The translations under genes were made by a program, and so were the position numbers. Of a DNA stretch of 64,000 nt, positions 21,967 through 44,581 are shown one piece after another. The notes beneath the pieces were generated by a model. That model did no database searches, was not told the origin of the DNA, and was given only the letters and a program-made list of their open reading frames with translations. Where the stretch lies: the NCBI RefSeq assembly GCF_003334405.1, contig NZ_QOWM01000005.1; one strand, given 5' to 3'. Origin of the DNA: Escherichia coli. Its GTDB lineage: Bacteria > Pseudomonadota > Gammaproteobacteria > Enterobacterales > Enterobacteriaceae. Numbering within the stretch: the stretch's first letter is position 1; each line of letters starts with the position of its first letter.

Positions 21967-21986
21967 GCCCGGCTTGCCGGGCTTTT
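21967..21986 (+). terminator. Stem-loop with T tract between fecA and fecB (putative attenuator)
   Basis: GCCCGGC-TTG-CCGGGC followed by TTTT, directly after the fecA stop. Confidence 0.4.
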
Positions 21987-22001
21987 AGCTGGAATGTGAT
22001 T

Positions 22002-26519: not shown

Positions 26520-26837
26520 CTTAAACTGGCCACCGATTTAGAGTTTTTCCAGTAGCGGTGTTCCGATTCGTTTGGGGGCAACCCGCCGTTATTGTCATGC
26601 GGTCTTAGCGAGCTGTAATACCCGATGATATAGTCTGTGATCGCATGAGCAGCTTCGCTAAAGCTTATGCGTTAGCGCTCTACAGAAGTACAGAGCATGT
26701 CTGCACGGTTGCTCTGGGTTATAGAGCAAAATTGCGGGTATATTGAAAGGTGGTACGCAATTTATTACGTGAAAAAGCTGTAATTTCTAGCCAGTGTTAC
26801 GTAAAATATAACGTAACAAAATTCACCTTATGCTTTT

Positions 26838-27935
26838 ATGGATTACAGCATGGCTAGTGTTGATGCAGATTACTGCTACTCGTTTCCGGCTATACGTGGC
26901 ATTCAGGCTGGTCGCCCTTTCTATATCGCCACATGCCCGATGCGTATCATCCCGAAAATATTCAGTTTTGATGAAAATGATGTGCCACCGGAATTACGCG
27001 CACAGCGCACGCTAAATAAATCGCGCATTCCCGAGATGGTACGTTATTTGTTGGAAAACCCTAAAGATTATGTGTTTTCAGCTCTGACGGCTTCCATTGC
27101 CGTAGACGTTCAATTTGATGAGTTTCCAGGTTCTAACAATCTGGGGACGTTGTGCGTACCAATGGATGCGCAAATTCTAATCAATGATGGACAACATCGC
27201 CGTAAAGCGATTGAAGACGCTTTAGACGCTCGTCCGGAGCTGGGCCAGGATAATATCCCGGTGTTGTTCTTTGTCGATGAAGGCTTAAAGCGTAGCCAGC
27301 AGATGTTCGCCGATCTGAATAAATACGCCATTCGCCCCAGCCCATCGCTGGCGTCGCTATACGATCATCGCGATGCCTGTTCGAATCTGGCGCGTTATCT
27401 GGCAATGTCAGTAGAGCCGTTTGTTGGGATGACGGAACTGGAAAAATCTGGCATTAGCCAGAGGTCGAATAAGCTATTTACGTTGAGCAGCATCAAGCAG
27501 GCTACCCGCGCATTGTTGGGCAAAGATCCCAAAGAGGATAACTTTGAGGAATGCACCCACATTGCTACCCAATATTGGCAGGCTATTTTTAGTGTAATGC
27601 CTGATTGGCAATTAGCGGCTAAAAAGGAAGTTTCACCGGTTCAATTGCGACAAGATTATGTTCACGCTCATGGCATTGGATTGCAGGCACTTGGGCAACT
27701 AGGATATACCCTGCTGACGGATTATCCTGAGCAATGGCCGGAGAAAATCGCTGCACTCAAAACATTTAACTGGCGTAGAAACAATCCGGACCTCATCAAG
27801 CGAGCGATGCAGCATGGGAAGTTGAGTAAAACCAGTACCGCGATCCAGTTAACCTGCAATGCGCTAAAAACCGCACTCTCAATTCCCCTCACTCCTGAAG
27901 AACAGGAGCTTGAAGCTCAAATGGTTGTCTCATGA
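26838..27935 (+). CDS. dndB: DNA phosphorothioation regulator DndB (DGQHR domain)
   Basis: 365-aa ORF containing the DGQHR motif (INDGQHRRKAI); first gene of a dndBCDE-ordered cluster. Confidence 0.85.
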   Translation: MDYSMASVDADYCYSFPAIRGIQAGRPFYIATCPMRIIPKIFSFDENDVPPELRAQRTLNKSRIPEMVRYLLENPKDYVFSALTASIAVDVQFDEFPGSNNLGTLCVPMDAQILINDGQHRRKAIEDALDARPELGQDNIPVLFFVDEGLKRSQQMFADLNKYAIRPSPSLASLYDHRDACSNLARYLAMSVEPFVGMTELEKSGISQRSNKLFTLSSIKQATRALLGKDPKEDNFEECTHIATQYWQAIFSVMPDWQLAAKKEVSPVQLRQDYVHAHGIGLQALGQLGYTLLTDYPEQWPEKIAALKTFNWRRNNPDLIKRAMQHGKLSKTSTAIQLTCNALKTALSIPLTPEEQELEAQMVVS

Positions 27936-29554
27936 GTAAATTAGTTCAGGCCTATGATTTGGCCGAATACGAAGATTTTATTAATCAGGAACAGTTCGCC
28001 GGACGTCCTCTGGCCGAATATGTTGCTGAGGTTCAACGAATTTATTGTGCGGATAAACGTCCGTGGGTGATTGGCTACAGCGGTGGGAAAGATTCTTCCG
28101 CTGTGATCACGCTGGTGTATCTGGCCTTGCTCGGCCTGCCCCCGGAAATGCGCAGCAAAGATATTTTTGTGGTGTCGTCCGATACGCTGGTCGAAACACC
28201 GGTAGTCGTGGATCTGATTAAGAAAACGATGTTGCAGATTGAGGCGGGAGCGAAGCGTAACGGCTTGCCGATCACTCAACACGCGGTAACGCCTAAAACG
28301 AATGAAACCTTCTGGGTCAATTTGCTGGGGAAAGGTTATCCGGCTCCAACTCGTAGTTTCCGTTGGTGCACTGAGCGCATGAAAATCAACCCGGTGAGTG
28401 ACTTTATTAAAGATAAGGTCAGCCAGTTTGATGAAGTCATCGTCGTACTTGGTTCGCGCAGTAGTGAAAGTGCTTCTCGTGCGCAGGTGATCGCAAAGCA
28501 CAAGATTGATGGATCACGCCTTGCCCGGCATACCACGCTGGCAAATGCATTCATCTATACCCCCATTGATACCTGGGATGTAGAAGATGTCTGGAAGCTG
28601 CTGCGGGGCGCGTTCCGCTATGCCCCTGAAGATATCGACGAGTGGGAAAGCCCGTGGGGTGGAAACAACCGTCCACTGTGGACGTTGTATATGGATTCTT
28701 CCGCACAGGGTGAATGTCCTCTGGTAATTGATGATAGTACCCCTTCCTGCGGCAACTCGCGTTTTGGCTGTTGGACCTGTACCGTTGTCACTAAAGATAA
28801 GGCGATGGAAAGCCTGATCAAAAACGGTGAAGAATGGATGTCTCCGTTGCTGAAATATCGTGATCTGCTGGCATTTACCACCGATCCGGTGAATAAAGAC
28901 ACGTTTCGAAACTATAAGCGCCGTACTGGTAAGGTGAGCTATCAGTACGCTAAAGAAAGTGATGAGCCGGGGGCTGAGCGTAAGCATGTTCCAGGTCCTT
29001 ACTGGCTAAAATACCGTCAGCAATGGCTCAAAGAATTGCTGGAGATAGAGCGCGATTTGAATGCTCAAGGCCATACCATTACGTTAATTACCAAACCAGA
29101 GCTGCATGCGATTCGTCAGGAGTGGTTGAAAGATCCTAATGAACCAGACTGGTATGACACGCTGCCGGGTATTTACCGTGAAGTGTATCAACAGGATTTA
29201 GACTGGGTGGTGGACGATCAGTCGCGCTTTGATGCCAGCGATGCAGATCTGTTGGTGCAGATAGCGCAGGGATTTGACGTTGTGCCTGAAATGGTGATGA
29301 AACTCATCGAGCTGGAAGTTTCAATGGAAGGCTTAAGCCGTCGTCAGGGCATTTTTGACAAACTTGGCACGATTTTAAAGCAGGACTGGGGCACTCTCGA
29401 AGAAATTGAACAACAACAGGTCACTCTGCAAAAACGAGTTGAACGAGATATTCATCAGGAAGAACTTACAAAGCTGGAAACTGAACTTCAGGTTTTACAG
29501 CGCAGAATTGTTGATGCCAGTGAATCCTCGTTACTGATTGGGGAGGAGAAATAA
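27932..29554 (+). CDS. dndC: DNA phosphorothioation protein DndC (PAPS reductase-like PP-loop ATP pyrophosphatase)
   Basis: 540-aa ORF with PP-loop SGGKDS (IGYSGGKDSSAV) and conserved Cys cluster; overlaps the dndB stop. Confidence 0.85.
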   Translation: MSKLVQAYDLAEYEDFINQEQFAGRPLAEYVAEVQRIYCADKRPWVIGYSGGKDSSAVITLVYLALLGLPPEMRSKDIFVVSSDTLVETPVVVDLIKKTMLQIEAGAKRNGLPITQHAVTPKTNETFWVNLLGKGYPAPTRSFRWCTERMKINPVSDFIKDKVSQFDEVIVVLGSRSSESASRAQVIAKHKIDGSRLARHTTLANAFIYTPIDTWDVEDVWKLLRGAFRYAPEDIDEWESPWGGNNRPLWTLYMDSSAQGECPLVIDDSTPSCGNSRFGCWTCTVVTKDKAMESLIKNGEEWMSPLLKYRDLLAFTTDPVNKDTFRNYKRRTGKVSYQYAKESDEPGAERKHVPGPYWLKYRQQWLKELLEIERDLNAQGHTITLITKPELHAIRQEWLKDPNEPDWYDTLPGIYREVYQQDLDWVVDDQSRFDASDADLLVQIAQGFDVVPEMVMKLIELEVSMEGLSRRQGIFDKLGTILKQDWGTLEEIEQQQVTLQKRVERDIHQEELTKLETELQVLQRRIVDASESSLLIGEEK

Positions 29555-29555
29555 C

Positions 29556-31556
29556 GTGCTCATTAAACAGCTGGTATTACATAATTTTCGGGTATTTAAC
29601 GGTACACATACCATTGATCTGGCACCCAGAAAGCGTCCGCACGATTTGAATCCACGACCTATTGTGCTGTTTGGTGGTTTAAACGGCGCAGGGAAAACGT
29701 CTATCCTGTCGGCGATCCGCATAGCGTTGTATGGACGACTGGCGTTTGGGCTAGCGACTCAACAGCAAGAGTATATCGAACAACTCAGTGCATTGATTCA
29801 TAACGGCGCGTACTATATTGAGCAGCCGGAAGAAGCATCTGTAGAACTGACGTTTACCTATAATAAAGGCGGTCATGAGGCCGAATTTACCGTTACGCGA
29901 ACCTGGAAAAAGGGGAAGAGGGACCGCCTTTCTCTGCAACAGGATGGGCAGCCACTCAGTGAGCTGGATTACGATCAGTGCCAGGGATTTCTAAATGAGT
30001 TAATTCCGCATGGCATTGCTGATTTGTTCTTTTTCGATGGCGAGAAAATTGCAGAACTTGCTGAGGACGAATCCGGTAATATTTTACGTACTGCCGTACG
30101 ACGCTTATTGGGGCTGGATCTCATCTCTAAACTGCGTAACGATTTAATGATTTTTGTTAAGCGTCAGCAATCCAGCCAGCTAGCAAGTTCTCAGCAACAA
30201 CAGATTGCAGAGCTTGAAAAACAGAGTAAAGAATTAGCCTGCCAGACAGAAGCACTGCTGGAAAGCGCCGATTTTGCCAAATCGCGGATTGAGTTTCTAT
30301 CTAAAGATATAACCCATTATGAAGGCTTGCTAAATGCTCAGGGGGGCGCTTTTGCCCAGACTAAAGCGCAGGAAAAACAGAAAGTCGAAACGCTGCTAAA
30401 AGATAAAGAACATCTGGAAAAAGCACTGAGACAAGAATGCGATGGCTCGCTACCTTATGCGCTTGCGCCCACTATTTTGTCTCATTTGCTGCAACAAATT
30501 GCTGATGAAACGCAAATTAAACAGGCAAAAAGCTTTGAAAAAGAGCTGAGCCAGTTTTTAACGCAACTCAGAAATGATATTGCATTTCGTTCTGCGGGGA
30601 CTGGCAAAATAGCAGCTGAAGCGATTACCGATAATCTAAAAGATTATATGGCAACGAAACCAAAAGGTGATTTGCTCTTTGATATCTCTGAGCGTGAAGC
30701 AGGTATGCTTCAACAGTCTATTGAGATAGATAGTAAAAGAGCATGGCAGCGTTTCGAGCTTTATCGCACACAGTTATCTGAGATTGAACAACAGTTAGAA
30801 CAAGCGGCTGCTAATATTGCCCGCGCTCCTGAAGATGAGCAGCTGATGGATCTCTTTGAAAAATTACGTGACCTGGATAGGCAGCGCGAAGCCCAATTGC
30901 AGAAATATCGGTCATTGCTAGAAGATGCTAAACGTAAAAAACAGCAGCAACTGGATTGTGTTCGTCAGATTCAAAAAGCGCATGACGCCGCTCGTTATCA
31001 GCACAGTTATAGCAGTGCGTTTAAGAATGCTCAGGAAACGATAAATTTACTCGATCGCTACAGCGATGTATTAACCCAGGCTCGGGTAAAAACGCTGTCG
31101 ACAAACTTCGAGCTTGCTTACCGTAAGTTGGCTCGCAAAGAGGATTTACAACTTAGTGCGCATATCAACCCTCAAACGTTTGATGTTGAATTAATTGATG
31201 AGAATGGCTCAGTAATTAACCGTAAGTTACTTTCTGCTGGTGAAAAACAGATTTATGCAATTGCTATTCTTGAGGCGCTGGCGAAAACCTCTGGCCGTGA
31301 TTTACCAGTGATCATTGATACACCATTGGGTCGTCTGGACTCTCAACATCGAGATAAATTGATTAATCACTACTTCCCTGAAGCCAGTCATCAGGTTGTG
31401 TTGCTTTCTACCGATACTGAAGTAGATGAACGTTATTTTGTTGATCAGTTGCGTGATGATATCTCTCATGCTTATGAGATTGTGTTTAATGCACATACTA
31501 AGTCATCAACGCTGAAGCCTGGTTATTTCTGGGAATTAACTAAGGAGGCTATCTGA
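29556..31556 (+). CDS. dndD: DNA phosphorothioation SMC-like ATPase DndD
   Basis: Walker A GGLNGAGKTS, long central coiled-coil, C-terminal signature/Walker B region; likely start GTG 29556 after GGAGGAG, whereas the ORF track uses TTG 29538. Confidence 0.85.
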   Translation: MLIKQLVLHNFRVFNGTHTIDLAPRKRPHDLNPRPIVLFGGLNGAGKTSILSAIRIALYGRLAFGLATQQQEYIEQLSALIHNGAYYIEQPEEASVELTFTYNKGGHEAEFTVTRTWKKGKRDRLSLQQDGQPLSELDYDQCQGFLNELIPHGIADLFFFDGEKIAELAEDESGNILRTAVRRLLGLDLISKLRNDLMIFVKRQQSSQLASSQQQQIAELEKQSKELACQTEALLESADFAKSRIEFLSKDITHYEGLLNAQGGAFAQTKAQEKQKVETLLKDKEHLEKALRQECDGSLPYALAPTILSHLLQQIADETQIKQAKSFEKELSQFLTQLRNDIAFRSAGTGKIAAEAITDNLKDYMATKPKGDLLFDISEREAGMLQQSIEIDSKRAWQRFELYRTQLSEIEQQLEQAAANIARAPEDEQLMDLFEKLRDLDRQREAQLQKYRSLLEDAKRKKQQQLDCVRQIQKAHDAARYQHSYSSAFKNAQETINLLDRYSDVLTQARVKTLSTNFELAYRKLARKEDLQLSAHINPQTFDVELIDENGSVINRKLLSAGEKQIYAIAILEALAKTSGRDLPVIIDTPLGRLDSQHRDKLINHYFPEASHQVVLLSTDTEVDERYFVDQLRDDISHAYEIVFNAHTKSSTLKPGYFWELTKEAI

Positions 31557-31909
31557 TGCTCCCGAATCGAATGGCGCTTAGCCGTCAGACTGAAGATCAG
31601 CTTAAAAAGCTTAAAGGGTATACTGGGATTACACCCAATATTGCTGCCCGGCTAGCATTTTTCCGCTCGGTGGAGAGTGAGTTTCGCTATTCACCTGAAC
31701 GAGATAGTAAGAAGCTGGATGGTACGCTGGTGCTGGATAAAATTACGTGGCTGGGGGAGACACTACAAGCTACAGAATTGGTGCTGAAGATGCTTTATCC
31801 ACAATTAGAGCAAAAGGCGTTGATTAAGGCATGGGCTGCTCATGTTGAGGATGGGATTGCGGCATTGAGAAATCATAAAAGTTTAATTAGCTTATTAAAT
31901 GCTATATAA
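31556..31909 (+). CDS. dndE: DNA phosphorothioation protein DndE
   Basis: 117-aa ORF overlapping the dndD stop; size and position fit DndE. Confidence 0.8.
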   Translation: MLPNRMALSRQTEDQLKKLKGYTGITPNIAARLAFFRSVESEFRYSPERDSKKLDGTLVLDKITWLGETLQATELVLKMLYPQLEQKALIKAWAAHVEDGIAALRNHKSLISLLNAI

Positions 31910-31950
31910 AACATTTAAATTTATTGGTATGACCTTTTGTTTTCAACCTA

Positions 31951-31986
31951 AAACCACCTCCTAGGGAGGTGGTGATTGAGTTTTAT
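31951..31986. terminator. Bidirectional stem-loop terminator between convergent dndE and the ATPase gene
   Basis: Perfect palindrome CCACCTCC-CTAGG-GAGGTGG at 31954-31973 with an A-rich tract upstream and TTTT downstream. Confidence 0.5.
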
Positions 31987-31991
31987 AATTG

Positions 31992-33155
31992 TCATATTGC
32001 TAATTTTAAAATTAATTCACCGGCATCAGGCGAATGTATCAGCGTAGCTAAATGTGAACCACACTTGCAAGAATTGAAGTTGCTGTCCACTTTAAATTTA
32101 AAGCGTCCGTTAGCAACCTCAGCATATCGGTAATTTTCATTCTCACTTTTCTCTTTTAGTTCGATCCTGAATTCATTATTGATATTTTCTAAGCAATATA
32201 AGAATTTTTCTATCTCATATTCGTTAGTTTCAATCCAAAGAGCAATTGCAAAACCCTTTAAGGTAGATAAATGCTTATCCGATAAGATTTTAGACAGCTC
32301 AATGAAAAAATCATGATGATCACAAGTCATAGCATCGAACTCGCCCTCAAGATAATCGGCATCCACGCCTAATTTTGCAGCATAAGCCTGAATGTTATTT
32401 TTTATACACTCTATAACTTCTGCTTCTGGTGGTAAATTATTTTCTGAGGGTAGGAAAACATTTTTAATACAATCTGAATTTATTCCTCTGCTTTTAACTT
32501 GATCGGCATCGTAAACAGATACTATGTTCAGGCCAGAGCTATCTTTATAATGCTCAGATACTTTTTGTATATTAGATTCACCTTGTAGATTATGTAAGTA
32601 ACATGTAGAGTAAAGATGTGTGTTTTTTATTTTTAAGATATATTCAAGTACAAGTTTTGCAAAGTCATCCTCTATCAGGAAAATATTTTTCCTTTCAGGA
32701 GCTAAACCCAGTGCATTGAAATATCTATAATTATATCCACAATTTGATATGGTATATTTTTTGCCTTTTTTAGCTAAGACTAATACTGAGTTTAAGCCTT
32801 GAGGGCTGAGTATGTGTTCAGAGTGAGTAGCCATCAAAACATTTAATTTTTTAGTATCGATTGTGTAGGCTAAAAAATCCATGAAATTTTTCTGGCTTAC
32901 CGGGCAAATAAAACTCTCTGGCTCTTCAATGAAGAGGATTGAATTTTTTTCCGTATAAATAAGTTTCCAGATTGCTATAAGTAACTTATGTTCTCCTTGC
33001 CCCATACTCTCTGACGTATAAACTATATTACTGTTAACCTCTTTAACCTCAAAGTATGGGAAAGTTAAATCATCAATAATTCCTTCTACCTCATTAACTT
33101 TTACATACTCATATTTCTTGCCTGTGATTTTCTGAACAAAAAAAAAGATTTTCAT
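31992..33155 (-). CDS. ABC/OLD-like ATPase, C-terminal part (Walker B, H-loop and TOPRIM-like region); separated from its N-terminal part by a frameshift
   Basis: 387-aa ORF with LFIEEPESF (Walker B-like), MATHSEHIL, and a TOPRIM-like IFLIEDDF ... YDAD; begins with ATG directly abutting the T9 tract. Confidence 0.6.
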   Translation of the reverse strand: MKIFFFVQKITGKKYEYVKVNEVEGIIDDLTFPYFEVKEVNSNIVYTSESMGQGEHKLLIAIWKLIYTEKNSILFIEEPESFICPVSQKNFMDFLAYTIDTKKLNVLMATHSEHILSPQGLNSVLVLAKKGKKYTISNCGYNYRYFNALGLAPERKNIFLIEDDFAKLVLEYILKIKNTHLYSTCYLHNLQGESNIQKVSEHYKDSSGLNIVSVYDADQVKSRGINSDCIKNVFLPSENNLPPEAEVIECIKNNIQAYAAKLGVDADYLEGEFDAMTCDHHDFFIELSKILSDKHLSTLKGFAIALWIETNEYEIEKFLYCLENINNEFRIELKEKSENENYRYAEVANGRFKFKVDSNFNSCKCGSHLATLIHSPDAGELILKLAI

Positions 33156-33603
33156 TTAGCAAATGATAAGAATTTGATGTATTGAACCATCCATTTTTGT
33201 TTGGCGATGTGTTTATTTCGTTTATGATTTTTAATGCCATTGATGAAGCATCAAAATATTCAACATTTCTTAGTCCATCACCCAAAGACGAAGTGAAAGT
33301 TTGTTTCTCTCCATTAATTATTATATCAATGGAGATATTATCAATATCAGAAGAGCTAAAAATCCCAACATTACATATATCTTTCGACAGTATACCATAG
33401 ATAAGTTTCAATAACGACGTTTTACCAATGCCATTTCTTCCACATATAGAGGTTAAAGCTGAGTTTATCGTAATATCAGCATCTTCAAAGAGTGGTACAT
33501 TCTTAATGGATAAACTACATATTTTAATATTAAACTTTTTCCTGTTTGCCACATGATTCCAATAATCAGCTAATTTTGCCATTTTAATTGTTTCTATTGA
33601 CAT
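33109..33603 (-). CDS. ABC/OLD-like ATPase, N-terminal part (Walker A)
   Basis: 164-aa ORF with Walker A GRNGIGKTS; it reads through the T9 tract and terminates 12 codons later. Removing one T joins it in frame to the 387-aa ORF. Confidence 0.6.
   Translation of the reverse strand: MSIETIKMAKLADYWNHVANRKKFNIKICSLSIKNVPLFEDADITINSALTSICGRNGIGKTSLLKLIYGILSKDICNVGIFSSSDIDNISIDIIINGEKQTFTSSLGDGLRNVEYFDASSMALKIINEINTSPNKNGWFNTSNSYHLLNENLFFCSENHRQEI
33138..33146 (-). repeat. T9 homopolymer (A9 on the plus strand) at the junction of the two ATPase ORFs
   Basis: Nine consecutive A at 33138-33146 on the plus strand; on the coding strand ATC TTT TTT TTT GTT. Confidence 0.8.
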
Positions 33604-34799
33604 GTAGTTACCCCCGCTAAAACAGAATCTGCATAATTGTTGACGACGCTTATCAGATTCTTTTCATTTTCATGATAAAGTGCTCTATGCGCAGTTTTTA
33701 GATTATTTTTTTTCATCGTATTGAACACATCTGCTTTACTGGGGTCACTCTTCAAGAAAAATAGAGATATTATAAAGTCTCTGATGAGTAAGGAAGTACC
33801 AGTCATTACTCTTGATACAGCCCTAAAATTAAATTCTTCCAATAACTCCTTTACTTCATCTTTATTTTCACAATAAAACAATCCATCCAACACTCCCTCT
33901 TCTCTGAAAACGAATCTACCACTTTCAAAGCGGTAAAAGAAATCACTAAGGCTATCGTCTAAATTATAATTCGATTTTAAAATGGTTGAAAAAAAATAAA
34001 GCCATGAAGTTAAAGTGGCTTTTGTTATATGAACCTTACTTTCTTCACTATCAATCTTTTTCTTTGCCTTACTTAATATTAAAATGGATTTTTTTACTAG
34101 TTCTATGATTGAATTATCAAAAGGCTCATCTTCACGAGCCCTGTCGTTTAATTGCTTTTCTGTATAAGAAGCAATCAATGAATCCTTCTCAAGCATGTAG
34201 CAAAGTTTAATGAAAAGATCATGGTATGCCATCCTTTGATTACTAAAGCCTAGAAAGTGCTTGTCAAGCCCACAATCCGACATATAATCTACGAGAGATT
34301 TTATCTGGTTTCTTAAATCGCCAACATAAGCATTTCTCTTTTCTGCTGAAGTTAATTTAAGAGATTCATTCAATCTGTTGAATAGTTCACCGGGCTCTCC
34401 CTGATTGTATTCAACAATCTCAAATACTCGAATGGCATACCGTTCAAATCTGTTTTTTATTCTTTGAGGTAATTTATCAAAAGTTAATCCATCTAATTCT
34501 TTGATATCATCATCAATAGGTTCAATTAATCCATTTATTTTGAATTTATTATACATGAAATCTCTTATGGCACTTAATCGTTGCTGTCCATCGAGAACTT
34601 CTTGAATATAGGAATCTTCATTTAAAATAACATGGACAGGTGGAACCTGCCACCCTCTTAGAATAGTATCGATTAAAAGTTTTTTCTTCGGAAGTTGCCA
34701 GACTTCCGCCCTCTGGAAATCGGGTTGGAGATCTAGACTTCCTTCATGAATCCTAGAAAATATAGTCCTCAAATCTGGATCTGTAGTATTTATTTTCAT
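33594..34799 (-). CDS. DUF262-like (ParB/Srx-fold, DGQQR motif) protein
   Basis: 401-aa ORF with LQPDFQRAEVWQ ... VLDGQQRLSAI in the N-terminal 100 aa; its ATG overlaps the dptH stop (ATGA at 34796-34799). Confidence 0.65.
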   Translation of the reverse strand: MKINTTDPDLRTIFSRIHEGSLDLQPDFQRAEVWQLPKKKLLIDTILRGWQVPPVHVILNEDSYIQEVLDGQQRLSAIRDFMYNKFKINGLIEPIDDDIKELDGLTFDKLPQRIKNRFERYAIRVFEIVEYNQGEPGELFNRLNESLKLTSAEKRNAYVGDLRNQIKSLVDYMSDCGLDKHFLGFSNQRMAYHDLFIKLCYMLEKDSLIASYTEKQLNDRAREDEPFDNSIIELVKKSILILSKAKKKIDSEESKVHITKATLTSWLYFFSTILKSNYNLDDSLSDFFYRFESGRFVFREEGVLDGLFYCENKDEVKELLEEFNFRAVSRVMTGTSLLIRDFIISLFFLKSDPSKADVFNTMKKNNLKTAHRALYHENEKNLISVVNNYADSVLAGVTTCQ

Positions 34800-37700
34800 T
34801 TCATTAACTCCCAGAATGCTTTATCACGCATTTTCCTAACTTTTTTATTTCCATCTATATACAGGCTAAAATGCTTCTCAAGTTGTCGTATCTGGCCCAT
34901 TAAAGACTCCTGCTCACTTTTATCGTCAATGTTAAATACCGCCTTAATGTCCGAATTCCTAATCTCAGAAACTCGATGAATTACCCAAGTGAGAATATAA
35001 GAAGCATAATTATTCTCGCCTGTTTTAAAGTGAGTAATTTCTTGTGTTGATAGAATCGCCCCTACACCATATTCACGGCCTTCTTTAAGGATTTTACGCA
35101 AGCTGGCAAAATCCTGGCGCATAAAGTTATCGGCTTCATCAACCAGAATCATTTTGGTTAACTGGCGATAATCACCTCGCACCGTCGGTTTCCCACGCTT
35201 TTGCATCTGCGCATAAAAAAGATCCAGTGTCAGTGCAACTACCAGGTTTTGAATCTCTGATGGATAACCAGCGAGTTCGATAACTGTGACTCCATCAACC
35301 AGATCGTACAAACTGGTCATCTTCTCTGGATCCGTTTCAAAAATCTGGAAACCAGCCAGATTATAAAGTGCAGCATATAATGAATCTTCGTCGACCTTCT
35401 CTTGTGCCAGGTACTGCTGCCACACATCTTCAATAGTCGGTGCTACACGATTCCATGTTGATCGATCATGAGGCACTATTCCTGCTAAGTCATAGCACTC
35501 CATTATTAACGTAACCAGCTTCATGCGTTGTTTTACGCCAAGGTTATACGCTTTGCCCATCGTTTCAGCGAATGCCATGGCCGTATGCCTCGGTAACATG
35601 GGCATATCACCAAATAACGATAACGGATTGTAAGGTAACAACGATAGCTGATACCTCTTAGCTCCCGTAGCTTCAAGAAACGCATCATCCACATAGTCGG
35701 ATTTATAGTCGAAGATCAACAAGCCAATCGGTTTACCGTCAACGTTGTAGGACTGATTGCGCATCAGTTGCGTAACCAGCGATTTAGTAAACTGGGTTTT
35801 CCCGGTGCCCATTGTTCCAATAATGCCGGTATTAGTATTCATGAACTTAGCGGTGTTGGTTGGTTCCCAGTACAATGGATTCTGACGCACAGCATCATGA
35901 CCAAACAAGATCTGTAATGGTGTATTGCGGACATTACTGGGGGTTAGTGCCGATGCTTCAGGTTGTGGAAGCTCCAGCGCAGAAATGGGCGGCGGCTCAG
36001 TTGTTGTTGCTACCTGTACTGGGTGTGAAGAATTGACATCACACTCTGGTTTGAGCAGATATTTTTCCGGCACCCGATAGCGTTCAGCTAGTGGAGGTTG
36101 ATCACCTTGTGCTGCAATTAACGATGGAAGCAATGAATAGGGGATTTCGATCTGTAGAATATTCTCTGCCGTTTCTTTATAAGAGAGATCAAAACAGGTT
36201 CCGCTGTCTACATGAGCTACCACAAAGCCTTCTGCATAATCAGCAAGCTCACCTAACTGATAGTCGCCAGTGAGCCACCATTCACGTCGTTCCAGCAGAG
36301 GGGATAGCTTGTCGTTATCCAGTACACCATACAGACGCAACTTCTCTACCTGCATTAATACTTGGCGGATAAAAAGTGCCCGGTATAGTTGTGATGCTAG
36401 AGTTTTCGGCCCAAGAATATCTTGCTGTAAATAGCGTTTTAGCTCGCGGGCCTGCTGCCCCGCATGGTTGTAATCGGGGCGAGCTCCTGTTTTTACTTCA
36501 AGTGGTAACAGATACAGGTTGTTATCTTTGAAACCGACAAAGAGCACATCGTCAGAGATCGCTCCTTTCTGATAACCCTGTAAATGGCGCGATAAATCGC
36601 TTTCTTTCATTCTCAGCCCGACGTTGCCGGACACGCGGATCATCTCAGCTACTGACAGTGGAATCCAGCAAATATCTGACTGGAGCAGCATAGACTGTAC
36701 GAATTTGTATGCACCGATAATGCCGTGTTTTTCTTTGCGCTCCTTTTCATTTGAACGCAACATTTTTAACAGCCACTCACCGTTAAAGGCATTAAATTCA
36801 GCAAGTAGTTGCTGGCTATCAACGGTGGATTGTCCTGTTTGAAGGAGACGCAGGAACAACTCAACCTGTTTTGTGACAGTTACGGCGTCATAACCAGCAC
36901 AACTGGTGTACTGGTCAGAGTAATGAATTAGTACGACATCTTTTTGACTAGTAAAGAAATCGAGTGTGACCTTAGGGTCGATAATTGTGGTCCAGAGAGA
37001 GCTATCATAAGAGCGATTCAGCAGTTGCTTAAAGTTACCGCTCACAGCCAGACTAATTCCCTGACCGTGATACTGGCTGTTGCTCTGCCGTGCCGGTTGC
37101 CACAGACAGCCTAACAAGCGGGCGAGACGCAGGGCGCAAGACGATTCAGTATCGACATTACGCAGACCAAACGCGGTAAAGTAAGCATCGCCTTGTGTTT
37201 CAGCCCCTTCGCCTGCAATCAAGCCATGACATAAAACCCCGCTGGCAGCATCCTCAATGCGAATTTGGCGGCAATCAACCGGTGCGGTGTTGGTGAAAAA
37301 TGCGAGATGGGCGTAAGCCAGTTGATCGCTTTCCGGTGGCAGGATAAATTTGCTGAATGTTAAGCGACTGCGAAGCAGATCGATCAACATATCGGCTTCA
37401 GAACGCCACGCACCGCTGTTCAGACCAAGATCATTTTTAAGTTGTTCATAGCTGCCGCTTTCGGCAAAGCGGTCAAAGGCATTGGGTAGCAGACGTTCGT
37501 CATAGCAGTTTACGTGTATCGAAATTGCGTTATCTTTTTCCTGCTTAAAATAATCTACCAGTCCCAGGAATAGCTCTCTGGCTTCTCCCATATTAATAGC
37601 ATTAATAACCAGGGCATTATTTCCTGCACTCTGGAACAGCCGAGAATAGGCATCTGTAAATTCGTTTAGCTTGTCTTTCACCAGACGCTTAACATATTCG

Positions 37701-39880
37701 TGGCTCATCTGGCGCTGGGGAACAATATCTATCCAGAAGCGGTTTTCTACCATCGGTTGTAACTGTGCGTATTCATGTTCGCTATGATACACAAATGGCA
37801 TTAGGCCAGAGACGACCAGACGATCTAGAGTAATCTCTGGTAATGAAGCGAAGGAAGCTGATGTGGGGTATCCGGGCTCGGCGATAATAGTTTCAGCTAG
37901 CTGTAAATGATAAGCCATTACCAATGGGTGCAGAGGCGAGAGACGTTCATAATCGTCGCCGCGGCAAATCCCCAGATGTAACAGACGTTTTTCCTGGATG
38001 GTTAATGCTCTGCTTAGACTGATTTGCTGTAATGCCTGTTCAAAAGTAGCGATCATGTGACTGACTAATACACGATATTCTGCTGACCATGACACCAGAC
38101 TCGGCAGGGTATTTCGACGTTGATAGTAAACGAACAATTGGTGGTACGCATTATGGAGGTCGGGATAGCTCGCCAGAAGCTCATCCAGTGCAAACTCACT
38201 ACCATTACTGCCAGTGCTGAGCAGATTACGCTCGATCAGGGCGTACTCTTGCATAAGCAACTGCTGGCGAACACCAACCACATTATGTTCGATATTGTCC
38301 AGGATGACGCGACCTTTCAACTTGTTCCAGGTTGCATTCCCTTCTTCTTTAAAGAGTTTATTGAAACGACCCTGATCAAAAAGCAGAGGCAGTGTTAATC
38401 CTTCCTCTGCTCCTGGACCTTCGATGTTAAACAGTAAACGGGAGTCACCTGAAATCAAGGTAAATTTGATCAGCTCACTTTGATTCGCCAGCGTTTCAAA
38501 ATTAACGAGTGCATAATGGCGGCAATCAACATCATCACTTTCTTCATCAAGTAAACAGGTCTTGTCGCCGAACTCTGCAATACGTAACTCATTATCTTCC
38601 AGTTGCAGAGTTAATTGACCTTTACCAGGTTCAATACGATAACAATGCTGGATTTCATTAAGCCAGAATTGCCCTTGTTCAACTAACAGCAGGCGAAACT
38701 TGTACTCTTCTGCTGAGTTATTGCGGTTAATGATTTCGAGGCTAAAGAAGCAGGGCCGACCATCAAAAGGCACTGATGCCAGTATCTTAGAGTTTCTCCC
38801 CCCGAGCCGGCTAGTACGCCAGAATCGTTCTTTCTGTAACGGACGATGATGAGCAATTTTTACCTGATTGTCCTGAAGGTCGTTACCCTGGAAGATAAAC
38901 TCCAGCTCAACTTGTGACTGCCCCGGTAGAACCTGAACCAGGACACTGATATCTCGTTTACCTGCTTTACTGGTGCTTTTGGCTCTTTGCCAGACCTCAC
39001 CGTTTTCAGCAGTAATGTTTTCCAACACCAGTTTCTGTTCACTGTTTTGTGCTTTTTCATTCAGGTAGACGGAGAAATCAAGCTCACGCCAATCGTCATT
39101 GTCAACGAAATGCTCCTGAATGAATTTTGCACTAAATTCAGTTAGTACATTCTCCAGTTGCCCGCTGTAGCGTTCAACACTGTCCTCTATCTGGCGATAT
39201 AACTTTTGGTTTTCATTGAGCCGGGCGCGCAACTGCTTATCACTAAAATTCAGCAGGTTATTATCGTTGAATAACTTTAGCTCTGAGAAATCCAGATTGC
39301 CGTCGTCCAGCAGACGGTATAACGATGAAAATCCAAAAACCGTAGCGCCTTCATCCAATATTGTTGTCAACTGATCGCCCAGCAAACAGCGGGATACTTG
39401 AGAACGGGCGCTGTCCGTTGTGATTAACTTTTCGAGCTGGTGACGGAAGGTTTCTGGATGCCAGATAGCATCCGGTGCAGCGACATCTTTGGTACTATTG
39501 AGTAAGGTATCCAGCATGCTGTTGTGGATAATCAACAACGCTGTCTGGGCAAAAATGCCATTGCGGCCAGAAACCTGATCGCGTAAATGAGAAATATAGT
39601 TTTCTGTGAATGCAGGGGTAGTGGTGCCGTGCAGTACCGGAATAAGCTGGATATTATTACATTGGACGTAGGTAAGAAATTGCTCCGGTGCAATTTCTAG
39701 TTTATTTCCATTTGCTAAAGAGTCGAAAGCCTTCCAGAGCTTTAAGGCGTTATCCGGATCGGGAGATTTAAACTGGTAGCGCTCACCAGGCTGGATGATG
39801 CTGCTAACCCATTCAATGAAGGTTTCTGCCAGATAGGTTTCATACTGTTTTACGGACATATACGGCGTCTCCACTGTCAC
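34796..39880 (-). CDS. dptH: Phosphorothioation-dependent restriction protein DptH/DndH (large multidomain ATPase)
   Basis: 1694-aa ORF; C-terminal Walker A GTMGTGKTQ and Walker B ILVDEADNF; third gene of a DptF(549)-DptG(441)-DptH(~1700) array. The true start may be the internal ATG near 39859. Confidence 0.8.
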   Translation of the reverse strand: MTVETPYMSVKQYETYLAETFIEWVSSIIQPGERYQFKSPDPDNALKLWKAFDSLANGNKLEIAPEQFLTYVQCNNIQLIPVLHGTTTPAFTENYISHLRDQVSGRNGIFAQTALLIIHNSMLDTLLNSTKDVAAPDAIWHPETFRHQLEKLITTDSARSQVSRCLLGDQLTTILDEGATVFGFSSLYRLLDDGNLDFSELKLFNDNNLLNFSDKQLRARLNENQKLYRQIEDSVERYSGQLENVLTEFSAKFIQEHFVDNDDWRELDFSVYLNEKAQNSEQKLVLENITAENGEVWQRAKSTSKAGKRDISVLVQVLPGQSQVELEFIFQGNDLQDNQVKIAHHRPLQKERFWRTSRLGGRNSKILASVPFDGRPCFFSLEIINRNNSAEEYKFRLLLVEQGQFWLNEIQHCYRIEPGKGQLTLQLEDNELRIAEFGDKTCLLDEESDDVDCRHYALVNFETLANQSELIKFTLISGDSRLLFNIEGPGAEEGLTLPLLFDQGRFNKLFKEEGNATWNKLKGRVILDNIEHNVVGVRQQLLMQEYALIERNLLSTGSNGSEFALDELLASYPDLHNAYHQLFVYYQRRNTLPSLVSWSAEYRVLVSHMIATFEQALQQISLSRALTIQEKRLLHLGICRGDDYERLSPLHPLVMAYHLQLAETIIAEPGYPTSASFASLPEITLDRLVVSGLMPFVYHSEHEYAQLQPMVENRFWIDIVPQRQMSHEYVKRLVKDKLNEFTDAYSRLFQSAGNNALVINAINMGEARELFLGLVDYFKQEKDNAISIHVNCYDERLLPNAFDRFAESGSYEQLKNDLGLNSGAWRSEADMLIDLLRSRLTFSKFILPPESDQLAYAHLAFFTNTAPVDCRQIRIEDAASGVLCHGLIAGEGAETQGDAYFTAFGLRNVDTESSCALRLARLLGCLWQPARQSNSQYHGQGISLAVSGNFKQLLNRSYDSSLWTTIIDPKVTLDFFTSQKDVVLIHYSDQYTSCAGYDAVTVTKQVELFLRLLQTGQSTVDSQQLLAEFNAFNGEWLLKMLRSNEKERKEKHGIIGAYKFVQSMLLQSDICWIPLSVAEMIRVSGNVGLRMKESDLSRHLQGYQKGAISDDVLFVGFKDNNLYLLPLEVKTGARPDYNHAGQQARELKRYLQQDILGPKTLASQLYRALFIRQVLMQVEKLRLYGVLDNDKLSPLLERREWWLTGDYQLGELADYAEGFVVAHVDSGTCFDLSYKETAENILQIEIPYSLLPSLIAAQGDQPPLAERYRVPEKYLLKPECDVNSSHPVQVATTTEPPPISALELPQPEASALTPSNVRNTPLQILFGHDAVRQNPLYWEPTNTAKFMNTNTGIIGTMGTGKTQFTKSLVTQLMRNQSYNVDGKPIGLLIFDYKSDYVDDAFLEATGAKRYQLSLLPYNPLSLFGDMPMLPRHTAMAFAETMGKAYNLGVKQRMKLVTLIMECYDLAGIVPHDRSTWNRVAPTIEDVWQQYLAQEKVDEDSLYAALYNLAGFQIFETDPEKMTSLYDLVDGVTVIELAGYPSEIQNLVVALTLDLFYAQMQKRGKPTVRGDYRQLTKMILVDEADNFMRQDFASLRKILKEGREYGVGAILSTQEITHFKTGENNYASYILTWVIHRVSEIRNSDIKAVFNIDDKSEQESLMGQIRQLEKHFSLYIDGNKKVRKMRDKAFWELMK

Positions 39881-41165
39881 TCATTCTCTCCACATTTCCC
39901 ATGCGTTCATAAAACGCAACCAGCATTTGTGTAGACTGGTTATCCAGATAAAATCCGCGTTGCTCAAAACCACGTAGCAGCTCATGCAGACGGAGTTTTT
40001 TGTTTTTACCCACGGTAAGGTTAGTTAGTAGCAGTAGTCGATCCTGGTTCAGTACCAGCACTTTCCCCGCTCGGCCACGAACCTGAATGAAGTCAGTGCA
40101 AATCTGGCTTTCCAGCTCGTTGATGTATTTGCGATTTACCGCTGCTCGCTCGGTTTTCTTACCCTGAAACTGTTCAACGGCAACAGATAACAGCTGTTTA
40201 AAGGCATCTTCCAGGTTTGTAGCACGATCGCGTTCAGGAAGGTCTCGCTCCTCCTTACTAATGAACTTCTGTATATAATTATTGAGTTCATTTAGTACTC
40301 GATTCGATGTATCTGAATAACCTAAGCAATCTTGATATACCTGCCAAAGAGGGCGCTTTTCCTCACCTTTTACTTGTAATACCTCTAATGCAGAGAGTAC
40401 GGGGAATAATTTTTCACTTTGGCGGGCAAACCACTTATAGCCGAAGAGCTTTATTTTATCTCGTTCGGAGCTAGCTTTTTCAGTATCGAGGATAAAGAAC
40501 AATGATTTACTCTGCGGCTCGCCGTCTTGCCAGTTGTCCAGATTGAGCGCCAGTTGTGCGCACCAACTAAAGGCATACAAACGTAGAGTATTGGTCAGCT
40601 CCTGCAAAAGATATTGTGGGTGCTCTGCCAGAAACGCCAAATCAGACTGAAAACACGTTACCAGATAGGGTAAATAAGGTTGTTCTTTTGCAAATGGCCC
40701 CTCACCCAGTCGGATTAATTTTTTATTGAGCTTATTCAGCATCTCTTTTTCAATAAAATTCAACTTATCTTGTATCGGGTTATTAAGGCTAAAATCTCTC
40801 ATCAAATTGGCAAACAGTGTTCCAAGGCGTTTGTCGGCAGTCGAGCCTGCACTTATCTTTTCACCATCAAACTGAGCGTGGAACAGCAAGAACAGCGGGG
40901 AGACACGAAAAATATCCTGACTGGAAAAATACATCCGTTCCAGCACGGACAAGAACGCAGGTTCATCGATCAATATTTGCAGATGAGTTTTACAATCCTC
41001 GCGAAACTGCTCGAGACTGTATGTATCGATTTTATACTTCACGGCATAGCTCAGTACTAAACCTGTGACGATTTGCCAGTCAATATTGTTATTCTTATTA
41101 CGTATTGGAAGGTAGCTATCCAGCTGGTTATTACTAACTTTTAAATTTGTTGCAATGGGATACAT
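39840..41165 (-). CDS. dptG: Phosphorothioation-dependent restriction protein DptG/DndG
   Basis: 441-aa ORF between dptF and dptH with appropriate size and position. Confidence 0.7.
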   Translation of the reverse strand: MYPIATNLKVSNNQLDSYLPIRNKNNNIDWQIVTGLVLSYAVKYKIDTYSLEQFREDCKTHLQILIDEPAFLSVLERMYFSSQDIFRVSPLFLLFHAQFDGEKISAGSTADKRLGTLFANLMRDFSLNNPIQDKLNFIEKEMLNKLNKKLIRLGEGPFAKEQPYLPYLVTCFQSDLAFLAEHPQYLLQELTNTLRLYAFSWCAQLALNLDNWQDGEPQSKSLFFILDTEKASSERDKIKLFGYKWFARQSEKLFPVLSALEVLQVKGEEKRPLWQVYQDCLGYSDTSNRVLNELNNYIQKFISKEERDLPERDRATNLEDAFKQLLSVAVEQFQGKKTERAAVNRKYINELESQICTDFIQVRGRAGKVLVLNQDRLLLLTNLTVGKNKKLRLHELLRGFEQRGFYLDNQSTQMLVAFYERMGNVERMSDSGDAVYVRKTV

Positions 41166-41169
41166 GATG

Positions 41170-42819
41170 TTATCCCTCCATGCCGCTGATAGTAATCATG
41201 TCATCGTCCGCTCTTGCACTATAGACCCGCTTTAGGCCATCATAAAACTTGATTTCGCTGCTGGATTTTGCCTTTTCTGCGATTAGTTCAACGATTTCGT
41301 CCAGTAAGACAATCGCACTTTTATCATACTTATTAGGGCGATAGCCATTATTTAGTTTGCTCAATAGCTCAAATAAATTAAGACCGATCCGAATCGGATC
41401 TAGCGGATCTTGTCCTACTTTTAAATAGATATCGAAACAAGTTGTATGGGCTGTATTTTTCTTGAGAATTGAATCCCAGTCCGGTTTCAGCGCAACAGGT
41501 GCTGTGATTTTAATCCCACCAAATTCGCCTAAAAAGAACTCTTCTTTTTGGGTACTCAGTTCAGGTGCTTTACGGTTTGCGTAACGCTGAATACCAGCGA
41601 TAAGCTCGAAAGAGTAAAAGCGGTTTAGTGTTCTTTTTTGTTCCGGATCTGCGGTATAGTTTTTATGCAGATGCCAAATCTCTGAATAACGCTCAAAGAG
41701 CGCTTCTTTAAAGAATACAGAGAACCTTTTGTGATAGTTATTCCCTAAAGATTCATGTTGTAGTAGCCAGAAAAGTCTAATTAATGAAGCTGCGTCACCA
41801 GGCTTAACACATTGACGATCAAACGTAAGATGTAATTTCGCAAGTGTACTCAGAAAATCATCCAGTTCGGGATCAACTAATCCAAGCTCATAGCGCAAAA
41901 TAAATTGATCAATCTCGTATGTATGCAATCTGGCAGGATCAAAATCAGAAACCTTTTTAATTAGATCATTCTCTGCACCATTAAACAGATTATCAAACAG
42001 GTACCCAGGCCCTGTCAGCAGGTGGTGTAAAAAATCCAATAAGGTTCTTGTGGTAACAAATTGATCTTTTATTAATCGGGCTTTAAATAGCTGTGTTATT
42101 AAAACATTCTGAACACCGGGCATGCACAGTAGTTTAAAGTTAGCAACGGTTTTTAAATCATGTCCTATTGATTCATCACGTTGATAAATTGTGTAAAACA
42201 GGTTTTTGTCGTCATTCCCCGTTAATTGATTCATTAATTTTTTGATAAAAGGGGAGTATTCCCGCTCTTCGTCAAACTCGAACTTTGGATAATGTTCGAA
42301 ATCAAAAAATATACAATTTTCGTTGCGGTAAGGACGCTGGCCTTCCTGTTGCGCTGACAAGAATGAGTCAATAGCAGCACGGATAGCCATATGGGACTCA
42401 GAACCTTCTCTGGCAAAATTGGCTAGCATCCCGGTGTTGATACCGATGAGGAGCGGGTATGATTGCGAATGATGATTTTCAAATAAATCATTCAGTGCAT
42501 CGATAGCCGATTGTTGAGGCGCAAAGCTATGTGTCGCATCCAGATGGAAACTAAACTTCTGTTGATATTGTGGATCTGACTTACAGCGGGTTAAAATTTC
42601 GGATTTCCCGTCTCCACTACTTCCGCATAGAAAAATGATCTCACCGGGAGTAGCTGTATCCAGATAACGCTGTAACTCTTCTTCAATCTCTTGTTTAACA
42701 AAGAGTTGTTCTTTTAGCTCATCGAACACATCCTTTTGCCGATGAGTTTCTGTGGTTACGGAAAACGAAGATGACTTCGCAAGTACACCTAACGCTTTAC
42801 GTAATGTGATCGCGCTCAT
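41170..42819 (-). CDS. dptF: Phosphorothioation-dependent restriction protein DptF/DndF (P-loop ATPase)
   Basis: 549-aa ORF with N-terminal Walker A CGSSGDGKSE; first gene of the minus-strand array facing the integrase. Confidence 0.75.
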   Translation of the reverse strand: MSAITLRKALGVLAKSSSFSVTTETHRQKDVFDELKEQLFVKQEIEEELQRYLDTATPGEIIFLCGSSGDGKSEILTRCKSDPQYQQKFSFHLDATHSFAPQQSAIDALNDLFENHHSQSYPLLIGINTGMLANFAREGSESHMAIRAAIDSFLSAQQEGQRPYRNENCIFFDFEHYPKFEFDEEREYSPFIKKLMNQLTGNDDKNLFYTIYQRDESIGHDLKTVANFKLLCMPGVQNVLITQLFKARLIKDQFVTTRTLLDFLHHLLTGPGYLFDNLFNGAENDLIKKVSDFDPARLHTYEIDQFILRYELGLVDPELDDFLSTLAKLHLTFDRQCVKPGDAASLIRLFWLLQHESLGNNYHKRFSVFFKEALFERYSEIWHLHKNYTADPEQKRTLNRFYSFELIAGIQRYANRKAPELSTQKEEFFLGEFGGIKITAPVALKPDWDSILKKNTAHTTCFDIYLKVGQDPLDPIRIGLNLFELLSKLNNGYRPNKYDKSAIVLLDEIVELIAEKAKSSSEIKFYDGLKRVYSARADDDMITISGMEG

Positions 42820-44496: not shown

Positions 44497-44581
44497 TGGT
44501 GCCGAAGGCCGGACTCGAACCGGCACGTATTTCTACGGTTGATTTTGAATCAACTGCGTCTACCGATTTCGCCACTTCGGC
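44497..44581 (-). tRNA. leuX: tRNA-Leu (CAA anticodon), leuX
   Basis: Reverse complement reads GCCGAAGTGGCGAAATCGGTAGACGCAGTTGATTCAAAATCAACCGTAGAAATACGTGCCGGTTCGAGTCCGGCCTTCGGCACCA, 85 nt with CAA anticodon, long variable arm and encoded CCA. Confidence 0.9.

Follow-up and report, generated by a model that had tools for sequence, protein, structure and literature searches.

Analysis of the window (the whole 64-kb stretch of DNA under study) revealed what is almost certainly an Escherichia coli B7A-type DNA phosphorothioation (PT) restriction-modification system, located on a genomic island that has inserted at leuX. B7A is the model strain for systems of the dndBCDE plus dptFGH type. The locus is an ordinary one because the B7A-type dndBCDE/dptFGH genes are well studied; the assignment of the seven Dnd-Dpt genes is already known, and the locus is a further copy of the reference E. 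coli system. Alignment of positions 26500-44400 with B7A revealed 99.98% DNA identity over 17.9 kb, with 2 SNPs and 1 indel. The seven proteins DndB, DndC, DndD, DndE, DptF, DptG, and DptH were each 100% identical to their B7A counterparts (7/7), and the two loci share gene order, orientation, leuX island type, and integrase. In the profile searches for Dnd/Dpt families that the first-pass annotation had proposed as a check, all seven proteins scored above the curated NCBIfam equivalog cut-offs, and PADLOC concurred. Nothing was found against the B7A-type assignment. These results bear out the annotation's complete dndBCDE and dptFGH set lacking a linked dndA; its coordinates, strands, and sizes for the seven open reading frames were also confirmed. 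As a by-product, a gene pair overlooked in that first reading, encoding a DUF262 protein and an OLD-family nuclease, is located in the slot where Salmonella Cerro 87 carries dndI.

[quoted passage not shown] The motifs quoted in the first reading, DGQHR in DndB and SGGKDS in DndC, were found, and DndD, described there as SMC-like, contains the Walker A sequence GAGKTS. A putative DndB operator (26754..26815, plus strand) consists of two boxes that lie 23-84 nt ahead of dndB: a perfect match to TACG-N10-CGTA at 26798-26815 and, at 26754-26771, a copy with one mismatch, TACGcaatttattaCGTg. The pattern search returned 2 matches in 64 kb, compared to 0.48 expected by chance. The motif comes from footprinting experiments in Salmonella Cerro 87 (PMC4507180), and DndB is predicted from the sequence to bind both boxes.

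The restriction genes lie on the minus strand in the contiguous order dptF-dptG-dptH, convergent with dndBCDE. dptF (dndF; 41170-42819) encodes 549 amino acids (TIGR03238, 439.4 bits, cut-off 50), and dptG (dndG; 39840-41165) encodes 441 amino acids (TIGR03236, 301.3 bits, cut-off 20). dptH (dndH; 34796-39880; RefSeq start 39859) encodes the large restriction subunit of 1694 amino acids (TIGR03237, 1210.7 bits, cut-off 620.65; PADLOC DndH, 2832 bits), whose C-terminal part is a HerA/FtsK-like translocase. No promoter was convincingly predicted for dptF. The two arrays had been described as facing each other; they are indeed on opposite strands, but two additional minus-strand genes at 31992-34799, after dptH, intervene, and dndE and dptH are therefore not direct neighbours. 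The last of these genes ends 82 nt from dndE, and the only element in between is a palindromic hairpin with a 9-bp stem, ACCACCTCCTAGGGAGGTGGT (31953..31973), which the terminator scan reported on both strands. This hairpin between the convergent units likely acts as a bidirectional terminator.

With respect to the sulfur source, a six-frame search of the 64 kb returned neither SxHK nor GSAC cysteine desulfurase signatures, and no cysteine desulfurase is annotated in the collinear regions of B7A and FDAARGOS_1077, in agreement with the earlier statement that the gene is missing. The absence of a linked dndA is typical of Enterobacteriaceae. The iscS gene, located outside the 64-kb window, is present in all E. 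coli tested and substitutes for dndA (PMC4373003); published work on B7A and its close homologue shows that housekeeping IscS takes the place of DndA (PMC4373003, PMC6435447). For B7A, d(GpsA)/d(GpsT), modification at GpsAAC/GpsTTC sites, a requirement for IscS, and active restriction have been reported (PMC4507180, PMC4373003, PMC6435447, PMC12345140). The Rp phosphorothioate was demonstrated at GpsAAC/GpsTTC of B7A genomic DNA, with d(GpsA)/d(GpsT) at ~370-400 per 10^6 nt and 4855 of 40,701 GAAC/GTTC sites (~12%) modified (PMC4507180). Cloned B7A dndBCDE-FGH restricts M13 1000-fold (PMC12345140), and the mechanism of DndFGH is summarised in PMC11662687. According to this published work, IscS, encoded elsewhere, would hand sulfur to DndC, and DndC, DndD, and DndE would together exchange a non-bridging phosphate oxygen for sulfur at GAAC/GTTC, the operon being repressed by DndB via TACG-N10-CGTA boxes. 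The convergent operon would supply a DptF-G-H complex that translocates along DNA and nicks unmarked DNA, and its ATPase would be damped by phosphorothioates on self DNA. The biochemistry was worked out in B7A and Salmonella Cerro 87; the present analysis covers gene identities and integrity, near-identity to B7A, operon layout, operator-like boxes, and the terminator hairpin that both units share.

The two genes between dndE and dptH were omitted from the first-pass annotation although they lie within its own coordinates; its interpretation of the locus is otherwise supported. Both genes are co-oriented with dptH, belong to the same transcription unit, and are translationally coupled. The first (33594-34799, minus strand) encodes a ParB/Srx-like DUF262 protein of 401 amino acids that lacks a nuclease domain; the first 4 nt of the gene overlap the stop of dptH, and its last 10 nt overlap the start of the second gene. 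The protein matches Pfam GmrSD_N (5e-20), contains an invariant DGQQR motif at residues 70-74, and has an all-alpha C-terminal half. The second gene (31992-33603, minus strand) encodes an OLD-family ABC-ATPase/Toprim nuclease and is frameshifted in the window: a T9 tract at 33138-33146, corresponding to T8 in B7A, splits it into open reading frames of 164 (33109-33603; Walker A only) and 387 (31992-33155) amino acids. Because of this frameshift, the interval 31992-34799 reads as three open reading frames. B7A carries the same pair, with the second gene annotated as an "ATP-dependent nuclease," between dndE and dptH; apart from the 2 SNPs, the B7A locus differs in that its nuclease gene is intact and lacks the extra T found here. 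The tract is T8 in the intact copies of 12 other genomes. The GC content of the module is 0.32, compared to ~0.40-0.47 for the dpt genes. No description of the pair was found in the searchable literature.

Analysis of the intact 536-amino-acid B7A OLD protein revealed matches to Pfam AAA_15/AAA_21 and to the PADLOC profiles HEC-04 (2e-27) and ATPase-Toprim (2e-15). Its AF2 model has a pLDDT of 90.2, and the best Foldseek matches were Thermus OLD 6p74 (9e-12) and GajA 8u7i. As in OLD-family nucleases, an N-terminal ABC ATPase with Walker A/B and H-loop is followed by a C-terminal Toprim domain with invariant E and DxD; residues G55-K61, E227-E229, H260, E311, D365, and D367 are invariant in 52 homologues. 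In HEC-04, defence depends on the equivalent residues K62 and E319/D375/D377. Published contexts of OLD proteins comprise a single gene (class 1), a UvrD-like helicase (class 2), and a retron (class 3), with a class 4 mentioned but not defined (PMC10568477). The partner here differs from classes 1 to 3, being a DUF262 gene in all loci examined. Class 4 we take to be PARIS.

In SspE and DndI, the PT status of DNA is read by DUF262 domains. It is close to an even chance, judged by analogy, that the pair is a further PT-coupled effector, in which the DUF262 protein would read PT status and gate the OLD ATPase/Toprim nuclease; in this strain the frameshift would inactivate it. On this reading, the pair would be a functional analogue of DndI made of two proteins, and it would use the dndBCDE mark in common with DptFGH. 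A known parallel is dptBCDE-dptFGH-dndI of Salmonella enterica Cerro 87, which is likewise of the GAAC/GTTC type, IscS dependent, and equipped with the DndB operator motif, and in which a DUF262-containing gene downstream of dndH is co-transcribed with dndFGH (PMC4507180, PMC11662687). Slot, strand, position downstream of dptH in the same operon (with the 4-nt overlap), and an N-terminal DUF262 domain with DGQQR all match dndI. DndI of Cerro 87 is a single PT-sensing polypeptide (1,971-bp open reading frame, ~656 amino acids) with DUF262 and a DUF1524 HNH domain, whereas the slot here holds a DUF262-only protein and a separate nuclease. No HNH or DUF1524 match was found in the 401-amino-acid protein. 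Against a PT-coupled role, neither single-sequence nor profile searches of the PDB with the DUF262 protein matched DndI (9JFL) at E<=1, and the PT-sensing Tyr of DndI/SspE was not mappable. SspABCD-SspE has other modification genes, another motif (CpsCA, single strand), and the SspE nuclease as a fused DUF1524 domain.

Alternatively, the pair may be an autonomous Menshen-like/OLD-type module that is nested in the defence hot-spot of the Dnd-Dpt locus and independent of phosphorothioation, a serious possibility though somewhat less than an even one. As in Menshen (NsnABC), a DUF262/ParB-like first gene overlaps an ABC ATPase gene downstream of it, and the Menshen profiles of PADLOC matched (NsnA, 3.1e-33; NsnB, 2.8e-14, covering only part of the profile). 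In the Menshen survey, the first two genes are almost always followed by a third (PMC12065111). Unlike Menshen, the locus has no NsnC gene (inPIN plus effector), and the ATPase itself ends in a Toprim domain and a beta tail; a DUF3696 tail was not detected on it. Autonomy would also fit the low GC content of the module and the match to HEC-04, a single-gene ABC-ATPase/Toprim system that was validated alone and occurs embedded in other systems. The dndE-dptH slot is moreover variable in E. coli, with REase, DGQHR proteins, or AgrB-like genes. Translational coupling to dptH argues against autonomy. Other slot occupants are ParB-superfamily or Dnd-associated proteins (for example DndI and TIGR04172 "phosphorothioation-associated DGQHR protein 1"), and the association therefore appears functional rather than accidental.

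Inspection of genomic contexts, a small set not drawn at random, which limits its weight for PT coupling, divided relatives of the pair into dnd-adjoining loci and more distant free-standing pairs with no dnd genes nearby. All nine independent loci with closer homologues (DUF262 44-75% identical), from Enterobacterales, Vibrio, Aeromonas, Shewanella, and Pseudomonas, carry dndBCDE within ~6 kb (9/9), and they group as a single clade apart from 11 free-standing homologues (bootstrap 200/200). Three of the nine lack dptFGH in the stretch examined (L013, Salmonella ICE L014, and Pseudomonas L099); for this reason, the pair is the sole candidate for a restriction partner in L014 and L099 and one of two in L013, where an Mrr-type REase is also present beside it. 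Such long-term, clade-wide linkage to dndBCDE over four orders, including loci without dptFGH, weakens the autonomous reading. The pair has also co-diverged with the dnd cluster: identities of the E. coli proteins to those of Pectobacterium, Aeromonas, and V. parahaemolyticus are 94/82/70% for DndC, 75/65/62% for DUF262, and 60/46/42% for OLD. The closer OLD homologues (>=30% identity), only some of whose loci were checked for dnd genes, differ from other OLD nucleases in an extra C-terminal beta-rich tail of ~60 amino acids, which the distant, shorter homologues lack; confinement of this tail to the closer homologues is consistent with PT coupling. On the other side, ~16 loci with more distant relatives have no dnd genes nearby, which indicates that PT is not intrinsic to the pair architecture. 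Free-standing pairs without dnd genes, among them those of Bacillus, Hymenobacter, Marinobacter, and Paenibacillus, favour autonomy. The free-standing relatives inspected (L011/L012, L015) showed no conserved third gene.

Taken together, we tentatively propose, again by analogy, that the pair may be an undescribed two-protein PT-coupled restriction module, a split DndI/SspE analogue in which a ParB-like PT reader would gate an OLD nuclease, recruited from a widespread free-standing two-gene (Menshen-like) system. With similar caution, such a module might use the dndBCDE mark alongside DptFGH, or serve as the main restriction partner in Pseudomonas and the Salmonella ICE. If the pair is PT coupled, it would add a further effector type to one shared backbone mark and a new partner class to the OLD-family nucleases. 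In that case, the pair may contribute to the phenotype of B7A-derived "dndBCDE-FGH" clones spanning the locus, a caveat for experiments with contiguous B7A clones. The frameshift here and the intact copies in 12 other genomes provide natural on/off variants.

Outside the Dnd-Dpt locus, this strain is not B7A itself: identity in the core flank is only 98.4%, the left part of the island has another arrangement, and an Ag43 segment of ~14 kb present in the B7A island is absent here. Expression and modification in this strain are for this reason inferred. The genes could be present yet silent or non-functional on a decaying island, given the frameshifted gene in the dpt transcription unit and, on the island, IS remnants and a truncated gene for PT-dependent restriction. 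This is very improbable, since none of the seven core proteins is truncated, all are identical to those of a strain whose activity has been demonstrated, and the promoter-proximal DndB boxes are intact. The B7A-type system predicts phosphorothioated DNA, degradation in Tris-buffered PFGE, and restriction of unmodified DNA for this strain.

The integration site of the island is the tRNA-Leu(CAA) gene leuX (44497..44581, minus strand; ARAGORN), next to a P4-type tyrosine integrase gene (43029..44297, minus strand) that scored 281 bits with NF007246, below the cut-off of 434, and is annotated by RefSeq as "tyrosine-type recombinase/integrase." The 3'-terminal 23 nt of leuX recur imperfectly at 7272-7293. 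The cargo inventory agrees with the earlier view of Dnd-Dpt as the main defence cargo; the other cargo comprises a fec operon, a CbtA/YeeU toxin-antitoxin pair, an antirestriction gene, and IS remnants. The truncated PT-dependent restriction gene was also observed on this island.

Analysis of the interval between dndE and dptH revealed two minus-strand genes that continue the dpt unit. The first-pass annotation had described dndBCDE as facing a convergent dptFGH array and did not mention these genes; the convergent orientation is correct, but dndE and dptH are not directly adjacent. The gene next to dptH (33594-34799) encodes a 401-aa DUF262 protein, and its first 4 nt overlap the stop of dptH. 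The second gene (31992-33603) encodes an OLD-family nuclease and shares 10 nt with the DUF262 gene. Translation of both genes is coupled to that of dptH, and their GC content is 0.32. The Dnd-Dpt system itself is already known; what merits follow-up is the overlooked, frameshifted DUF262-OLD module in the position of dndI.

The surrounding genes were assigned with the curated whole-protein (equivalog) cut-offs of the NCBIfam models, which all seven Dnd and Dpt proteins exceeded. The plus strand carries dndB (26838-27935; 461 bits, cut-off of 328), dndC (27932-29554; 539 bits, cut-off of 290), dndD (29538-31556; 507 bits, cut-off of 246), and dndE (31556-31909; 83 bits, cut-off of 72). The minus strand carries dptF (41170-42819, 549 aa; 439 bits, cut-off of 50), dptG (39840-41165, 441 aa; 301 bits, cut-off of 20), and dptH (34796-39880, 1694 aa; 1211 bits, cut-off of 621). 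Coordinates, strands, and lengths of the seven reading frames matched the first-pass annotation, and the motifs DGQHR (DndB), SGGKDS (DndC), and Walker A (DndD) were found in the translations. The gene names obtained with PADLOC agreed with those of NCBIfam. The top PADLOC v2 matches of DndC and DndE were profiles labeled "MTase_II," that of DptF was labeled "REase_II," and DptG also matched the MADS profile "mad7" (2.8e-171); automatic annotation could be misled by these labels.

Positions 26500-44400 were matched over at least 80% of their length by 15 complete E. coli genomes. Comparison with B7A, the model strain of the E. coli system, revealed 99.98% identity, with 2 SNPs and one single-base indel, and all seven Dnd/Dpt proteins were 100% identical to their B7A counterparts over the full length. 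To the right of leuX, the core flank shares 98.4% identity with B7A, and on the left the island is missing ~14 kb present in B7A (Ag43/YfjI); the source strain is not B7A itself. This is the B7A-type Dnd-Dpt system, which was already known, and the earlier reading is supported. In B7A, d(GpsA) and d(GpsT) occur at ~370 to 400 per 10^6 nt, and the modified sites are GpsAAC/GpsTTC, with 4855 of the 40,701 sites carrying the modification (PMC4507180). Cloned B7A dndBCDE-FGH restricted M13 1000-fold (PMC12345140).

A linked dndA gene was ruled out. A six-frame motif scan of the 64 kb revealed no class-V aminotransferase signatures (SxHK and GSAC), and the annotations of B7A and FDAARGOS_1077 list no cysteine desulfurase in the collinear regions; the earlier claim that dndA is absent therefore holds for the window. 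The iscS gene lies outside the window, and the role of IscS is taken from the literature, in which the housekeeping enzyme stands in for DndA (PMC4373003, PMC6435447).

A pattern search upstream of dndB detected two candidate DndB operator boxes, one perfect TACG-N10-CGTA (26798-26815) and one with a single mismatch (26754-26771). This motif was footprinted by DndB in Salmonella (PMC4507180). A terminator scan located a palindromic hairpin with a 9-bp stem (31953-31973, both strands) between the convergent units. A sigma-70 promoter scan matched the real sequence less often than a shuffled one and yielded no convincing promoter for dptF.

The position downstream of dndH is filled in Salmonella Cerro 87 by dndI, which is co-transcribed with dndFGH. 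The dndI product is a DUF262-DUF1524(HNH) protein sensing GpsAAC/GpsTTC, and DndI alone makes a defence system with IscS-DndBCDE (PMC11662687). The tyrosine that senses phosphorothioate (PT) is Y25 in DndI and Y30 in SspE. The DUF262-OLD module occupies the same slot as dndI. In other E. coli genomes, the slot contains a restriction endonuclease and a hypothetical gene (SE11 type, 9 genomes), a small protein and the TIGR04172 "phosphorothioation-associated DGQHR protein 1" (19 genomes), or an AgrB-like gene and a split DGQHR gene (111 to 125 genomes). At four other E. coli dnd loci, it spans positions 8249-9725 (L003), 8463-10156 (L004), 7847-9548 (L006), and 7749-9428 (L007). Since the cargo differs among genomes, the slot is a variable position, taken mostly by ParB-superfamily or nuclease genes.

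The DUF262 protein matched Pfam GmrSD_N (5e-20) and PADLOC NsnA (3e-33), and its DGQQR motif was invariant. In the AF2 model (pLDDT 90.8), the N-terminal half of the 401-aa protein is ParB/Srx-like and the C-terminal half is all-helical; the model contains no nuclease domain. Searching the PDB by phmmer and with a 51-sequence profile yielded only a marginal match to BrxU (E 0.53). Sequence homology to DndI or SspE was unsupported by these searches, and BrxU and SspE are tied to the DUF262 protein by fold comparison only.

The OLD gene corresponds to the 536-aa "ATP-dependent nuclease" of B7A. Its product contains ABC-ATPase Pfam domains and matched the PADLOC profiles HEC-04 (2e-27) and ATPase-Toprim (2e-15). 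The defence role of HEC-04, an ABC-ATPase/Toprim protein, has been validated by experiment, and the Lys and E/D/D residues at the equivalent positions proved essential there (preprint 10.1101/2024.01.29.577857). Alignment of 52 homologues revealed invariant residues in Walker A (K61), Walker B (E227-E229), H260, and the Toprim domain (E311 and D365-x-D367). The best structural matches of the model (pLDDT 90.2) were Thermus scotoductus OLD (6p74) and Gabija GajA. Homologues with at least 30% identity (509 to 550 aa), two truncated sequences excepted, end in an additional beta-rich tail of ~60 aa (55 to 63); Dnd linkage of these tailed proteins was checked at only some loci. The tail, residues 475 to 536 of the B7A protein (31992-32180 in the window), is poorly conserved in sequence and is missing from shorter, distant homologues (472 to 489 aa).

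In the window, the coding strand of the OLD gene has nine T residues at 33138-33146; B7A and 11 other complete genomes have eight, and WEM25 is likewise a T8 strain. The extra T splits the gene into two parts, of 164 aa (N-terminal) and 387 aa (the rest). The module was found in 13 of 5426 complete E. coli genomes and is of intact length in 12 of them; in EC416, both genes are split. The additional T may be a sequencing error in the homopolymer or a true inactivation by slipped-strand mutation.

Closer homologues of the pair (DUF262 identity of 44 to 75%) occur in Pectobacterium, Vibrio parahaemolyticus, V. vulnificus, Aeromonas, and Shewanella, where dptFGH-DUF262-OLD faces dndEDCB. Two Pseudomonas strains and a Salmonella conjugative element have the pair beside dndBCDE and no dptFGH in the sequence examined, an arrangement that mirrors published genomes with dndBCD and dndI but without dndFGH. 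These contexts were sampled one by one and form a small, non-random sample that gives no unbiased frequency of Dnd linkage. Across taxa, the pair loses identity in parallel with the Dnd/Dpt genes that flank it, indicating that they have long been inherited together and that the pair was not inserted recently. The pair may be a PT-coupled two-protein effector analogous to DndI and SspE, in which the ParB-like protein would read the DNA status and control the OLD nuclease; we give this reading a little less than an even chance.

A scan of genome contigs for DUF262 relatives gave at least 600 matches, and those listed were all at most 46% identical. At ~16 sampled loci of more distant homologues (38 to 46% identity), from Firmicutes, Bacteroidota, Actinomycetota, and Proteobacteria, the ATPase gene is still adjacent, and no dnd genes lie within 10 kb. 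A neighbour-joining tree separated nine Dnd-linked from eleven free-standing DUF262 proteins in 200 of 200 bootstraps. Alternatively, the pair could be a Menshen-like or OLD-type module that acts autonomously and lies within a defence hot-spot, a serious possibility that we rank below the PT-coupled effector. Canonical Menshen was rejected: its loci almost always include an NsnC gene (PMC12065111), which is missing here, and the ATPase of the pair has a fused Toprim domain. PD-T4-2 was also rejected, as it combines DUF262 with HEPN. The context of the pair matches none of OLD classes 1 to 3 as a review defines them, class 4 being merely mentioned there (PMC10568477). A comparative-genomic reappraisal of Dnd neighbourhoods reported HKD, HNH, REase, URI, HEPN, and PIN nucleases (PMC10853773); the pair is absent from it and from the DndI paper (PMC11662687). 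A full-text literature search, with subscription journals outside its reach, found no description of the pair.

Analysis of the island frame revealed a P4-type integrase (43029-44297) adjoining tRNA-Leu(CAA), leuX (44497-44581). The 3' end of the tRNA gene (44498-44520) is repeated imperfectly at 7272-7293 (copies of 23 and 22 nt, with one indel and one mismatch), and this direct repeat is probably the distal att site. The island would accordingly extend from ~7.3 to 44.5 kb (~37 kb), wholly inside the window, with fim/nan core genes to its left. Its other cargo (13890-26700) includes an IS66 element, the ferric-citrate uptake operon fecIRABCDE, and IS3 remnants on the flanks of the dnd module. 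A gene for a 216-aa HNH endonuclease (5839-6489, minus strand) lies next to nanS, just beyond the att-like repeat. Also by nanS and outside the repeat lies a 5' remnant (6569-6811, plus strand) covering residues 2 to 45 of the 284-residue "phosphorothioated DNA-binding restriction endonuclease" (NF045808); its truncation fits self-incompatibility, because the host's own DNA would be a target for a type IV enzyme that depends on PT. In Shewanella violacea (L097), an HNH gene with a ScoMcrA-type sulfur-binding domain (8909-9778) is located between dptH and the DUF262-OLD pair, next to dndBCDE; a nuclease that depends on PT is unexpected so close to genes that write the mark.
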